From assembly GCA_951406725.2 (NCBI GenBank), contig OX597815.1, positions 83,204,001 through 83,268,000 on the forward strand: a stretch of 64,000 bases of DNA. The letters are read 5' to 3'. The notes beneath the pieces were generated by a model. The model worked only from the letters and a program-made list of their open reading frames with translations. It ran no database searches and had not been told where the DNA came from. Of this stretch, positions 15,209 through 61,598 are shown piece after piece (the stretch's first letter is position 1; every line of letters begins with the position of its first letter). Source of the stretch: Octopus vulgaris (taxonomy: Eukaryota). Both the position numbers and the translations under genes were made by a program.

Positions 15209-15279
15209 CTACTGGCTGGCTACGCTGCATTGAAAAGGGGCAATACCCCGAAACGCGTCTGTAGCTGCCGGTCAAGTAG
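15209..15279 (+). ncRNA. Type I hammerhead ribozyme, U3:A8 core variant (copy 1); predicted cleavage after C15259
   Basis: Stem I GCUGCA(15224-29)/UGUAGC(15260-65); core UUGAAAA; stem II GGGG-CAAUA-CCCC; GAAA; palindromic stem III ACGCGU; GUC triplet; stem I extends GGCUGGC/GCCGGUC and CUACU/AGUAG past a UAC bulge. Confidence 0.88.
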
Positions 15280-15570
15280 TGTGGAGCGACTGACCTCCCT
15301 TGTTCGAAGGTTATATGGATACAGTTTGTGTATCAAATAGCTAACTTAAGGCGATGGCCTCATGGAGCTAATAAGCGGACATCTTTTTTCTTATTTTTAT
15401 AAGAATGCCATATTAGTATGGCGATAACTATTATTTTCCGGGAACGCTGCCGCTGTTCTCTTTTAGAGAGACTTAGTTATTTTAATATTTCTATTATTGA
15501 AAACAAGTGGATGTATTCCACCGAAACTAGGTAAATAAAACCATCGAACAGAGATTGTCGGAAGCGACAC

Positions 15571-15641
15571 CTACTGGCTGGCTACGCTGCATTGAAAAGG
15601 GGCAATACCCCGAAACGCGTCTGTAGCTGCCGGTCAAGTAG
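15571..15641 (+). ncRNA. Type I hammerhead ribozyme, U3:A8 core variant (copy 2); predicted cleavage after C15621
   Basis: Identical to copy 1, 362 bp downstream. Confidence 0.88.
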
Positions 15642-17374
15642 TGTGGAGCGACTGACCTCCCTTGTTCGAAGGTTATATGGATACAGTTTGTGTATGAAAT
15701 AGCTAACTTAAGGCGATGGCCTCATGGAGCTAATAAGCGGACAGCTTTTTTCTTATTTTTATAAGAATGCCATATTAGTATGGCGATAACTATTATTTTC
15801 CGGGAACGCTGCCGCTGTTCTCTTTTAGAGAGACTTAGTTATTTTAATATTTCTATTATATATATATATATATATATATATATATACATACATATATACA
15901 TATACATACATATATATATATATATATATATATATATATATATATATATATATTTATATAAAAACATACATATATATATATACATATATATATACATATA
16001 TTATATATATTACAATTTTTCACCCTCATTTTGATTTTAATTCTTAATTAATATTGTTCTCAAACCGGCGTTAACTACTGCAGTGAATTGTTTATGTGGT
16101 ATTTATATCCGAGAATTTGGCGCGCTAGACGAGGGCATTTGAATATAACTATGGATGTAATAGGCCGTACTGCTCGCATTTTTGGCCACGTGTTAATATA
16201 CGGCGTGCAGTTCGACAAATTATATTCTTTACACACTCTACTGACGATCTGCAAATTAATTGTGTAAATAAAATTGCATAATTTATTAACAATGAAACAA
16301 TTATATGGGGTTAATCTATATTTTTGTTATTTATCATTTGTCCTGCCCGCTTCCATTCATGGCGTGTTAAATTTTTTTCTTGAGAACAACTTTTAGTGGC
16401 TAGCGTAAGGGAGTTCACTTTTAGTGGATTCCCTCTCATATATGTATTAATAATATTTACTGAATCTCAGTTTTTTATATGCTAAACCATTGGTGTTAAA
16501 CTAATATTATTAAATTAATATCCAATTGTTCATCCTCATTTTGATTATACACCACACACACACACACACACACACACACACACATATATATATATATATA
16601 CATATATATATATACATATATATATATACATATATACATACATATATATATATATATATATATATATATATATATATGTACGTAATTACTTATGTCTTAT
16701 ATTTATATATATATATATATATACAAATATCTGCATATATATGTGTGTGTGTGTGTGCGTATATATATATATGTGTATATTTTCACGTATGTATGCATAC
16801 ATTTATGGATGTGTGTATGAGTGTATGTATCTAATGGTACATACGCAAAATAAGGACACCGAGTCACACAATAGGATTTTAAATATGCGTTCTTTTCATT
16901 CTTTCTTCTTTTCAGTGATTTTTTCTTTCTCTGCTCGTTTCAGATATTCGTTTCCTATTTGTCATCGGTTTTGACATCTCCTTCGTTACACCTTTTGATC
17001 TGACTTTCCCTCCACCGCTGGCTGTTGTCTACTAATAATCTTTCACACAAATACAAAACTTAATACCGTCCCCCATTAGCTTATACATTCGCAAAGATCC
17101 ATGATCCTCCCTCACCTACCGATATAATACTCTATCAATAAAACACCCTTCTATGTATGAATATTTCTGTATACACACTCACAGACACACATATATATAT
17201 ACATACACACGCGCGCAAACACACACATACAAACATATACATATATGTTTGCGTACATGTTTGTGCGCGTGTACTTCAATGTCTATTTGTGTGCGTAAAG
17301 CCAGACATACATTACATGTGAACGTATTTACATATATATGTATGCACATACACACGCACTCGCACACACACATA

Positions 17375-18090
17375 CAGTGTGCGATGGGTAAATTGTTTCC
17401 AATTTATATTTTAATTTCGCTAACGTTCTTTTGTCTTAGATTTTGTCCACTACACAGTATAGTAGAGTCAGTTGGGCACCATCTCTGAGAAAAACAGTAC
17501 CATAACGCAATCGCTCTTCCAGACTGCTGTATTGCTTGGTATTAGTGCCGGAAATTCTAATACGAATTTTTTCGAAGTGTTTGGGTGTGAATCTGAGGAC
17601 AGTGCATTCTGAGAACATGTACCGAAAATGATAAAAATCAAACATGCAGTCAACATCATACTGTTTAGTCATCACTAGTGATGGCGACGTCATGCCTCCA
17701 TTTAGCTTCCCTTACGGCATCATACTCAACACCGAGGCCTACAAGAAGTGCCAGGAGGAGGCAGTGGTGCCCTGGATCAAGAGAGTGGCTGCTGGAAGAC
17801 CCTGTGTCTGCCAACATGAATTTGCGTCATTCCACACAAGCAGGAGTCCCTACTTGTGACTGTCAGACAATTTATGCATCCACATCACCCCTAACATCTG
17901 GGCAACTAACTCCCCAATCTGCAACCCTTTGATTATTGTGTATGGCGCAGTTGAGTGAGAGACCAAGAAAACTCCTTGTAACACCAACTAATAGCAAAGA
18001 TTATGGGTGCGTTCATCAATTCAAACAAGGAGACCACCCAGAAGAGTTGCAGGAGATTCCGAAGTCGTCTGGTGGGCATGGCTGAAGCCT
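17375..18090 (+). mobile_element. Internally deleted Tc1/mariner DD37D (maT-type) transposon relic
   Basis: TA|cagtgtgcgatgggtaaattgt terminus; SDGDVMPPFSFPYGIILNTEAY...VVPWIKRVAAGRP...HITPNIWATNSPICNPFDY matches the maT catalytic region (WPPNSPDxNPLDY). Confidence 0.85.
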
Positions 18091-58689: not shown

Positions 58690-58930
58690 TCAGGTCATTT
58701 CATCATGTTAACCGTTAACCCTTTCACATTTTTCTTTCTCTCCATTTCTTTCACTTCTCTCTCCATTTTTCCTTCTCTCTATATGTTTTTCTCAACGCTT
58801 TTTCGTCAAAGATCATAGGCTTGAAACGTCAAACACTTTTCCATTCTCGCCGAGCGTCATATTAATACACTTGATTATTGTTCCCTCACTTGTTTTCGTC
58901 ATCTGTTCTCTGTAAATTTGAGTTATATAA
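58690..58930 (+). mobile_element. Probable PLE-type relic next to (TA)n with an eroded HHR remnant (~58800-58835)
   Basis: gatc-atag-gctt-GAAA-CG-UC remnant; CUGANGA box not intact. Confidence 0.35.
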
Positions 58931-60064
58931 ACTTTCGAGCGTGTGTTATTGTGCGTGTTTGCGTTTACGTTTGTGTCTCTGTGTCTAATTGTGCGTGTTT
59001 GTATGTCTAATTCTGTGTGTGTGTGTGTGTTTACGCTTGTGACTGTGTGTGTATATGTGATTAATGAAATGGATTATGATTAAAATTTCCTGAGACTTTA
59101 GGGCTATTCGAAAAGTGAACTGTTTAGTGCGGTTATGACTGAGTATTCCCAAGATGATAACGTGTATCTTTAATGTAATTTTCGCAGTAATCAACATAAC
59201 ACATTTTGGCAATGTTGCACTTTGAATTTGAGCGACAATTCTTTAGTCCGGTTTCAGCACGTTTTAATACACCTAATTTTATCCACTATATGTAAGTCAA
59301 CCTCGAGCTATATAACAAAATCTTTCTCGAAGATTTCTCCCATACATAGGAAATACATATTCATTCATATAATGAAATATATATTGCTTGCAGGCCCATA
59401 ATACTGAGTATATTAAGATTTTATATATTCCTTGAATATATATATATATATATATGTATATACGTATATGTGTCTAAGTGTGTGTGTATGTTTGTCTGCC
59501 TGTGTGTATACATGTAGTCATATGTATTTTAATATATACTCTGAATATCTATGTTTATAATGCAATATGACAAAATGTATTTGTATATGTATAATAATAA
59601 GAATTAGTGATTAGCAAATATAAATAGACAGAAAAAAATCATCACGAAATATATATAATTTATAATATATATTATAAGAATTCAGTTTACATTTCATACC
59701 TTATGTGTTATTATCTATCTATAATATATATTTTGTCTGTATGTGTCATTGTTTAAGTCACTTCTTTTATTTAATTTCAAAATTTGAAATGTTTCATTAA
59801 CTGTAACATGAAACTACACTGAGCTGTAATTTGTGAAATACGTACGATATACACAATCATATTGTTAAATTTAGTACTGTTCTGGTTGTGGGTTTTAAGT
59901 TTTCCCAAAGACCATTCCGTTTCGAGTTATTTTTCCTTGATTCGTTTCAACTTCCTAACAACATTGTGGTCTTTGATACAACACCAACGACGTTATTTCA
60001 TAAATTGTTTTCTCACTGATGATCATGACGAAACTTATTAATGCGAGGTTTAAATGAAATTTAT

Positions 60065-60420
60065 ACTTCTCTTTTATCTCTATTCAGTCCTTAGACTTCG
60101 GCTTTGCTGAAACACGTACCTGAATTTTCTTTGATGAAATGAAACGACCCCAGTACATATTTATTTATCTTTAAGGGTATTTATTTTATTGACCTCCTTT
60201 GCAGAACCGCTAAGTTACCGACATGGTGGTGCGTCAAATGCAAACACAAAGACATGCACATATACCTACCTGCATAATACATACATACATGCACGACAAG
60301 TTTCTTTCAGTTTCCTTCTACCAAATTAATTCACAAAACTTTGGTTGGCCCGCCGTAGTGAAACTGAAATCGAAACCATGTGCTCGAGAAGCAGACCTCT
60401 TACCATACAGCTACTGCGCC
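60065..60420 (-). mobile_element. Degenerate SINE family A
   Basis: gaccccagtac...gaaccgctaagttac...ctttcagtttccttctaccaaat...gaaaccatgtg...accatacagc. Confidence 0.7.
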
Positions 60421-61285
60421 AATATGATATAAATTAAATTTTATTACTTATTTCGTATTTTCGTTTTCTTTGTTCTATCGCATCAATATAATATAAACGA
60501 AAAGAGAAAAAATAATGAATGAAAGAAGAAAAACACAGAGAAAGTGCAATAGCTCACATGACTTCTTTGGTTAAATTACATCAACTAGAGTCGAAAGTAT
60601 AAATATTGTAATGAATTGCGTAATAAACAACATTTTATTACAAATATGTATGTGTTTGTGTATGAGTGCGTATACATATATATATATATATATGTATATA
60701 TATATATATATATATATATATATGTGTGTGTGTGTGTGTGTGTGTGTGTGTGTGTGTGCGTGTGCGTGTGTGTGTATTGACGCCTATGTGTAAACGAATA
60801 GGGAGGGATATTGATGGACAGAAAAAACAAAATAGGGAATGCATTACTGCTAAAAGAGTATCAAGTCATTAATATAAATACAAAACATGTCTGCAATATT
60901 AATAAACAATGGTCCATATTTAAGTACATACAAAAAAAAGAATATGGTGATTTAGATAGTATAATCATGACGACATATACGTCATATATATGGCGACTTC
61001 TATTATTCAGTTACGGATTGCATATTTATCGCGTTATCTATGGAACGAAATCAAAGTCATTCACTATTTACTCAATATTTGTCCGCTAGATGGTTGGCAG
61101 ATACATTATGAAAGGAAGTCAATGAAAATAATGCGTTCTATATACAACGCATATTATTCTTCAGACTGATGCACAAATATTTTGAGTTACGTATAATATA
61201 TATTTTACTGGTAAGTTTCTTAGCTCTTACGACTTAGTAGAACAATGGGAAAAGCGCTCCGTTGCACTTTCCTCTGACCTATATA

Positions 61286-61598
61286 TATGGTTGATATATA
61301 CGGAAAAAAGCAAGGTAAAAAATTCTAAAATTATTTTATAAAATACATTTCAGTAACAGTTTCAGTCATTGAGACGTTTTCAATTGTAAGTATGGAATGC
61401 AATTAAATTTTGGAAAAATTAAGAGAAAAGTTTTTTAAAAGAATATTTGCATAGTGTTCAAATACAAGTGGCATTTTCCTTGTTTCTGTCTCTCGTGTTC
61501 ACTCTTGTTGGTTCTCCAGCCCACAATAGTAAATAAGAGAGACAGAGACAGGCTGAATCAAGGAAAATGCCACTTGTAATTGAACACTATGCAAATAT
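61286..61598 (-). mobile_element. Penelope-like pseudo-LTR relic with 40-bp inverted repeat and degenerate U3:A8 HHR, in (TA)n
   Basis: Inverted arms 61443-61482/61559-61598 (1 mismatch); minus strand 61347-61389 reads UUGAAAA-cGUC-UCAAU-GACu-GAAA-cugu-UA. Confidence 0.62.

Follow-up and report, generated by a model that had tools for sequence, protein, structure and literature searches.

Minimal hammerhead ribozymes (min-HHRs) of Penelope-like elements (PLEs), their action as dimers and the retrozymes have already been published (PMC4209133; PMC7229834; bioRxiv 10.64898/2026.07.22.740005; PMC6765202). In metazoan PLEs these motifs belong to type I and have a short palindromic helix III, lying in the pseudo-long terminal repeats (pLTRs) at the PLE 3′ ends in thousands of copies, and stem II may be preceded by an additional nucleotide (Cervera and de la Pena 2014, PMC4209133). 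The present analysis concerns hammerheads of the same type in a stretch of the Octopus vulgaris genome (2.8 Gb in 227 contigs), namely the 64,000 bp at positions 83,204,001-83,268,000 of contig OX597815.1, referred to as the window, in which one of three families, family B, also has the extra nucleotide. The 56 representatives given in PMC4209133 comprise 53 with C3:G8 at the 3:8 position of the core, two with U3:A8 and one with U3.G8, with no G3:C8, A3:U8 or U6 among them, whereas the octopus genome has all four Watson-Crick pairs, with a pair other than C:G in approximately 60-65% of the motifs bearing A6. In Schistosoma mansoni, approximately 1,300 U3-A8 motifs were reported beside approximately 2,000 canonical ones (PMC4209133).

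The natural U3-A8 covariants of Perreault et al. (2011, PMC3088659) show the same compensatory change and are active in vitro, but were called rare, and the parts of that report considered here name neither G3:C8 nor A3:U8. In the Poseidon PLE of the lizard Anolis, hammerhead cleavage is protein-assisted and dispensable for insertion in vitro (PMC11167929). Its G3:C8 form is a partly active laboratory mutant, whereas in octopus a family of approximately 9,000 motifs has G3:C8 naturally; its one-sided tail, arising from two reverse transcriptase (RT) start sites, resembles the two 3′ end clusters of octopus family A (PMC11167929). Family A shares with the retrozymes not flanked by long terminal repeats (non-LTR; Cervera and de la Pena 2020, PMC7229834; Li, Clavereau and Pollet, bioRxiv 10.64898/2026.07.22.740005) a non-coding tandem unit, a type I hammerhead, a stable predicted circle and PLE-type insertion, and differs from them in its U3:A8 core and 6-nt palindrome.

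Elements of this kind, their dimer mechanism and the U3:A8 core are known, while the occurrence of all four Watson-Crick pairs together with an A6U core at high copy number in one genome looks undescribed. In the literature covered, neither a natural G3:C8 or A3:U8 hammerhead nor a cephalopod census was found, although Luense, Weinberg and Breaker may list such cores. Their article (RNA Biol 14:1499, PMC5785218), going by its title, reportedly deals with numerous small PLE-associated hammerhead variants which cleave as dimers. The finding extends a known system and opens no new one.

Motifs in the window, which is microsatellite-rich and has a GC content of approximately 33%, were found and checked with a hammerhead descriptor scan, and positions are numbered along the window. 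An Rfam scan of the window had no hammerhead family among the 150 of 240 matches listed, these being mostly microsatellite matches to microRNA models. The variant-core hammerheads and the elements carrying them are as follows.

15014-15190, minus strand: inverted, 5′-truncated copy of family A (unit positions 73-249), a PLE-type inverted arm without the 62-nt tail
15186-15859, plus strand: family A, non-coding tandem element of retrozyme type; one 362-bp unit plus unit positions 1-312, within a (TA)n tract
15224-15265, plus strand: type I hammerhead of family A, U3:A8, with a palindromic helix III of 6 nt; core at 15230-15236, cut predicted after C15259
15586-15627, plus strand: second U3:A8 hammerhead of the family A tandem; predicted cut after C15621
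18224-18503, plus strand: PLE-type insertion of family B, short and non-coding; the inverted arm (about 18224-18301) has an internal deletion and the forward copy (18302-18503) a one-sided tail
18309-18359, plus strand: type I hammerhead of family B, G3:C8; core 18316-18322, stem II preceded by an inserted G, cut predicted after C18352
32708-32746, minus strand: eroded copy of a U3:A8 family, now U3,G8; the A8 to G change is private to this copy and no family trait
40856-41235, plus strand: family C, 3′ end of a 5′-truncated Neptune-type PLE; last codons of an open reading frame (ORF) of GIY-YIG type, then 3′ untranslated region/pLTR ending in (TA)n
41076-41115, plus strand: type I hammerhead of family C, U3:A8; core 41083-41089, predicted cut after C41108, approximately 120 nt past the ORF end
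61347-61389, minus strand: eroded U3:A8 hammerhead of a further family; palindrome and first stem II pair mutated

The descriptor scan confirmed the four well-formed variant motifs that a preliminary description of this DNA had placed at 15.2/15.6, 18.3 and 41.1 kb. They represent three insertions, which show no BLAST similarity to one another at E<0.01; the earlier statement had called the three families unrelated. The type I core (N3 U4 G5 A6 N7 N8 A9 ... G12 A13 A14 A15.1 ... U16.1 H17) and helices I-III are complete in all four, as well as in a fifth motif at 1693-1762. The classic C3:G8 identity is absent from the four, being replaced by U3:A8 or G3:C8 with Watson-Crick pairing retained. 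All of them have C17; stem I, stem II and the helix III palindrome are 6 bp, 4 bp and ACGCGU in both family A hammerheads (15224-15265, 15586-15627), 7 bp, 5 bp and AAUAUU in family B (18309-18359) and 7 bp, 2 bp and ACCGGU in family C (41076-41115). The two eroded motifs of the preliminary description proved to be decayed copies of two further U3:A8 families, the sequence at 61294-61460 having 89% identity to L203/L204 and that at 32630-33060 having 88% identity to L209/L210 (L-numbers denote individual genomic loci compared with the window copies); the U3,G8 state reported at 32.7 kb is only a private change from A8 to G. A candidate A3.A8 motif at 49348-49426 was rejected as a chance match, as it lies in low-complexity sequence and has no homologue in the genome sample described below.

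Family A is young: its copies, spread over many contigs, are 99-100% identical (1012 first-look candidates), and the core is UUGAAAA in 78 of 78 motifs. Its tandem unit of 362 bp lacks a long ORF, carries one type I hammerhead and falls within the 150-450 bp range of retrozymes. Among 56 internal 3′ ends from 29 loci, 48 are at unit positions 246-253 or 307-312, giving two ends 62 nt apart. Family B is a non-coding element of approximately 200 bp, with an inverted arm and one-sided tail like those of family A, and the core GUGAACA is present in 30 of 36 motifs (loci L161-L180). Insertion of both families into TA-repeat targets, with an inverted 5′-truncated arm and a one-sided tail, is of the PLE type. 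Copies of family B (L162-L180 and 18224-18320 of the window) almost always begin, and invert, inside a small hairpin that lies 10-25 nt upstream of stem I, a pattern suggesting that priming takes place by fold-back at a fixed 5′ end.

Comparison of the last 319 aa of its ORF, with motifs matched by eye to the Neptune rows in the supplement of PMC8557442, identifies family C as the 3′ end of a Neptune-type PLE. Longer copies (L144/L150) have a CxxxxCxxC linker and a GIY-YIG-type domain in this ORF, and in most copies the hammerhead is approximately 120 nt past the ORF end; the remnant in the window (40850-40963) has 89% identity to the L144 ORF. A Pfam search with the end of the family C ORF gave no GIY-YIG match and only a sub-threshold one to SIR2.

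It had been proposed that this genome may hold a very large population of variant-core hammerheads missed by CUGANGA-based screens, to be checked by a scan admitting any 3:8 pair against shuffled sequence. Such a scan was made on 1.2 Mb of the source genome (120 stretches, each of 10 kb, taken at round positions of contigs C1-C29), with a relaxed descriptor that left positions 3 and 8 free to hold any of the 16 base combinations and with 20 local dinucleotide shuffles as control. It gave 16 matches against a mean of 1.15 per shuffle, namely six C:G, eight U:A and two G:C, with none for the other 13 combinations, and a variant core was present at eight of 13 sample loci. With a stricter descriptor the first 80 stretches gave six U:A, one G:C and three C:G. 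Both descriptors demand A6 and an exact palindrome and are blind to the A6U family and to motifs of the 1693-1762 type.

Genome-wide pattern counts were made on both strands, with the reversed pattern as control, and pair shares within pattern classes were tallied by hand from the first 100 matches listed, all from the start of the assembly. The U3:A8 motifs with a strong 6-nt helix III number 16,836 (control 1,101) and belong to many families, and a further U3:A8 family is represented by 33 of the first 100 listed among 15,325 matches (control 7,410), or approximately 5,000 copies. G3:C8 accounts for 80 of the first 100 listed among 11,739 (control 2,724), corresponding to approximately 9,400, and A3:U8 for 14 of the first 100 listed among 13,529 (control 831), corresponding to approximately 1,900. 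The R:Y class with an SSSS palindrome was useful only for revealing this A3:U8 family, its 4,431 matches being below the control (6,886).

The class with a 4-nt ACGU helix III has 15,428 canonical matches (control 1,489), with genuine C:G in 89 of the first 100 listed, whereas its W:W matches (1,754) are below the control of 2,594. Motifs without helix III number 9,146 for S:S (control 4,680), mostly C:G, and 13,398 for W:W (control 9,456). The raw pattern for C3:G8 with a strong 6-nt helix III gave 3,796 matches (control 541), a count not to be taken at face value, given that 68 of the first 100 listed are one repeat, a coding sequence within a non-LTR RT ORF. The pattern totals are estimates and lower bounds from which mixed and 8-nt palindromes stand apart, and they amount to approximately 21-25k for U3:A8, 9k for G3:C8, 2k for A3:U8 and 19-20k for canonical motifs. 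The non-C:G pairs make up approximately 32-36k, or 62-65% of the sum, in agreement with ten of 16 in the sample.

The largest single hammerhead-like family has the pair C3:G8 together with U6 in place of A6. Its pattern (A6U, with all four bases at N7) gave 22,897 matches against a control of 5, with 25 sites in the sample. In L295 (3705, 5256) the A6U motif is found behind a Neptune-type ORF, following a long pyrimidine tract, in two tandem units. The proposed large, CUGANGA-invisible population is borne out by these figures, the 32-36k non-C:G and 22,897 A6U motifs being far above their controls and tied to PLEs; CUGANGA matches approximately one quarter of all motifs, and screens based on it would miss approximately three quarters. 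However, an avoidance of C3:G8 is not supported, with 19-20k canonical motifs present, and once the A6U family is counted this pair forms the majority, approximately 55% of all motifs. With approximately 60% of A6-bearing motifs being variant, three variant insertions in a row have p ~0.22, so that the uniformity of those in the window needs no special cause.

On sequence comparison, homologous families switch the 3:8 pair in a compensatory manner, pairing being kept and the letters free. The clearest switch is between the retrozymes L250 (U3:A8) and L200/L247 (C3:G8), which have 85% identity over 379 nt. For family B (G3:C8), a relative with C3:G8 (L231) has 61% identity over 159 nt (E 5e-8) and one with U3:A8 has 61% over 186 nt (E 3e-6). 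The A3:U8 motifs have a covarying stem I and lie 260-306 nt past PLE ORFs with 39-57% identity to that of family C, a family C-related ORF preceding the motif in seven of 19 fetched loci. Within the class with the ACCGGU palindrome, W:W has 13,529 matches (control 831), with U:A or A:U in 99 of the first 100 listed, and S:S has 608 (control 196), with C:G or G:C in 84 of the first 100. The non-pairing classes have 1,344 (control 255) and 860 (control 697) matches, compared with 14,137 in the two classes containing Watson-Crick pairs, and the 1,344 of the S:W class cannot be read as non-pairing cores, being mostly one non-hammerhead repeat without stem II. L054 (minus strand, 4323-4781) is a distant PLE with a U3:A8 hammerhead which has a 4-nt palindrome and an inserted U; its GIY-YIG ORF gave no tblastn match to the Neptune probe, and its U3:A8 pair probably arose independently.

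On the likeliest reading, the motifs are minimal type I hammerheads carried in the pLTRs of PLEs and in non-coding derivatives of these, probably acting as slow-cutting dimers in which selection likely keeps a Watson-Crick pair at 3:8 and leaves its letters free. Two adjacent copies are predicted to pair through the palindromic helix III into a double hammerhead, which is the minimum-energy fold of the homodimer for families A and C and for the A3:U8 motif, all of which have exact palindromes. By analogy with published relatives cleavage would follow C17, perhaps assisted by a PLE protein as in the lizard PLE, and cleavage and ligation would then release a 362-nt circle of family A; the fold of such a circle has z = -5.7 against 100 shuffles. 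A change from C:G to U:A would be an easy route, needing two transitions along the AT bias via a U.G wobble, and the copy number of each pair would mirror which families happened to expand and not an advantage of one pair. It is possible, but put forward tentatively, that G3:C8, A3:U8 and A6U are natural, active, high-copy cores with cutting speeds graded by helix III length, and that approximately three quarters of some 75,000 hammerheads are invisible to CUGANGA.

A number of observations weigh against the reading as slow-cutting dimers with a selected 3:8 pair. For family B the double hammerhead has -25.4 kcal/mol, 9.6 above the homodimer minimum of -35.0 and also above two monomers (-32.0), and the same is true of the A6U motif and of the canonical motif with a 4-nt helix III. 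Since every family represents one evolutionary event, the covariation rests on a handful of switches, one of which involves L231, known as one old copy whose stem I has 3 bp. A protein tree of 17 PLE fragments leaves eight of 14 inner branches open and does not give the order of the switches. Damaged cores have spread too, as in the A6U family with its 22,897 matches, and so has a U3.G8 lineage (L233-L237), which lacks nucleotide 1.1 of stem I and often occurs as inverted pairs; it makes up 25 of the first 100 listed among the 860 matches above, behind ORFs 93% identical to that of family C. The 5′ ends of family A are scattered, with only two of 43 at the cut-site positions 73-78; the templates were thus circles or uncut concatemers, and the readings are not separated by this feature. 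For families A and B the search for an autonomous partner gave none, no PLE ORF lying upstream in the 30 A or 20 B loci examined.

Several of these features would fit a reading in which cleavage is largely dispensable, the motif being either kept as a folded structure (for protein binding or RT positioning) or in decay, with variants which drifted under AT bias and rode on expansions. That view, which we regard as doubtful, gains from the spread of the U3.G8 lineage, from the lack of a pile-up of family A 5′ ends at the cut site and from the largest family being A6U, since A6C gave low activity (PMC3088659). In the lizard PLE, hammerhead mutants leave in-vitro insertion unaffected, and the parts of that study considered report no RNA-seq ends at the cut site (PMC11167929). 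However, pairing of positions 3 and 8 forms a tertiary contact in the catalytic fold (PMC3884650), and all 16 of the sampled motifs have a Watson-Crick pair there, where pure decay would lose the pairing. The G:C and A:U pairs moreover require double transversions.

Selection for a Watson-Crick pair of any letters also has to be set against selection for attenuation, in which weaker non-C:G pairs would slow the ribozyme and spare full-length RNA, with a longer helix III offsetting the weak core. Core type does track helix III length, the 6-nt palindrome classes being over 90% non-C:G and the 4-nt ACGU class canonical; the C3G/G8C double change rescues activity only in part (PMC11167929, PMC8495972), and uncleaved RNA is the insertion substrate (PMC11167929). 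The coupling may reflect compensation or ancestry, as the 6-nt U:A, A:U and U.G motifs occur on related Neptune ORFs which the tree cannot separate. It has exceptions in both directions, with U3:A8 beside a 4-nt palindrome (L054 and the family of approximately 5,000 copies) and C3:G8 beside a 6-nt palindrome (L200, L247), and the canonical families are equally successful. Attenuation of this kind, which the preliminary description had offered as a way for full-length PLE RNA to survive, appears improbable.

Cephalopods are known for high RNA editing, and inverted arms would give long double-stranded RNA in read-through transcripts. Nevertheless, the further suggestion that A-to-I editing at A8 tunes activity in vivo has very little to recommend it. 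It could apply to U3:A8 only, leaving out G3:C8 and A3:U8; the folded motif has a single-stranded core, and in the window the inverted arm of family A, which begins at unit position 73, leaves A8 uncovered. With a U3-I8 wobble the pair would be weakened and not tuned up, and A6, A9, A13 or A14 would be edited just as readily. When contigs of eight sequencing runs, presumed to be of RNA, were compared with families A and C, no A-to-G change at A8 was listed and some contigs spanned the predicted cut site, though contigs drop rare variants and may derive from DNA, so that the comparison speaks for neither side.

Surveys based on CUGANGA would under-count genomes of this kind approximately fourfold, and PLE families reported as ribozyme-less may carry one. 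Together with their C3:G8 and U3:A8 sisters, the natural G3:C8 and A3:U8 families form a series with which geometry and identity of the 3:8 pair can be tested against each other. The same series bears on whether PLE hammerheads must cut at all, which is treated as an open question in the sources considered (PMC8557442, PMC11167929).

The preliminary description had also stated that all well-formed hammerheads of the window avoid C3:G8. This does not hold, the following C3:G8 motifs being present.

1693-1762, plus strand: canonical C3:G8 hammerhead, the first in a 470-bp tandem pair; core at 1697-1703, with a long loop II and a helix III of 3 bp
2163-2232, plus strand: eroded second C3:G8 copy, 470 bp beyond the first, with G5 changed to A
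58764-58929, plus strand: eroded member of the C3:G8/A6U hammerhead-like family, which is very abundant; lying inside the coordinates of the earlier observation

The motif at 1693-1762 has the full canonical core (CUGAGGA, GAAA, UH) with stems of 4, 4 and 3 bp. It is an older copy, lies outside the coordinates of the earlier observation (15209..61389) and has a minimum-energy fold which differs from the hammerhead. The CUGANGA core is intact in four of its five nearest fetched relatives. Its repeat family has 1,355 first-look candidates, and a pattern for this type and similar long-loop canonical families gave 1,032 matches genome-wide (control 2). In several canonical C3:G8 families loop II is long and structured and helix III has 3 bp; these families occur as tandem units of approximately 445, 470 and 546 bp (e.g., G000:C2:8129421-8131542 and C1:133323977-133325847) and are probably retrozymes with larger units. 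For the canonical families with a 4-nt helix III, no PLE ORFs were found upstream among the loci examined.

In two U3:A8 families (L201, L203, L206, L213, L214, L228 and 61347-61389 of the window) a pyrimidine-rich stretch ending in TTACAG, resembling a splice acceptor, directly precedes the core. In Drosophila virilis Penelope an intron ends at helix I (PMC4209133). If splicing occurred at TTACAG, the 5′ strand of stem I would be replaced in these two families.

Other repeats of the window include a sequence on the minus strand at 61841-62560 which, judging by its translation, is probably the remnant of a decayed mariner-like transposase. A fragment at 35309-35683 resembles, by eye, the C-terminal part of the ORF of the L130-L140 non-LTR retroelement. 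At 33433-33962 there is a dispersed repeat with terminal similarity at both ends and 96% identity to L039, which is frequent in the sample.

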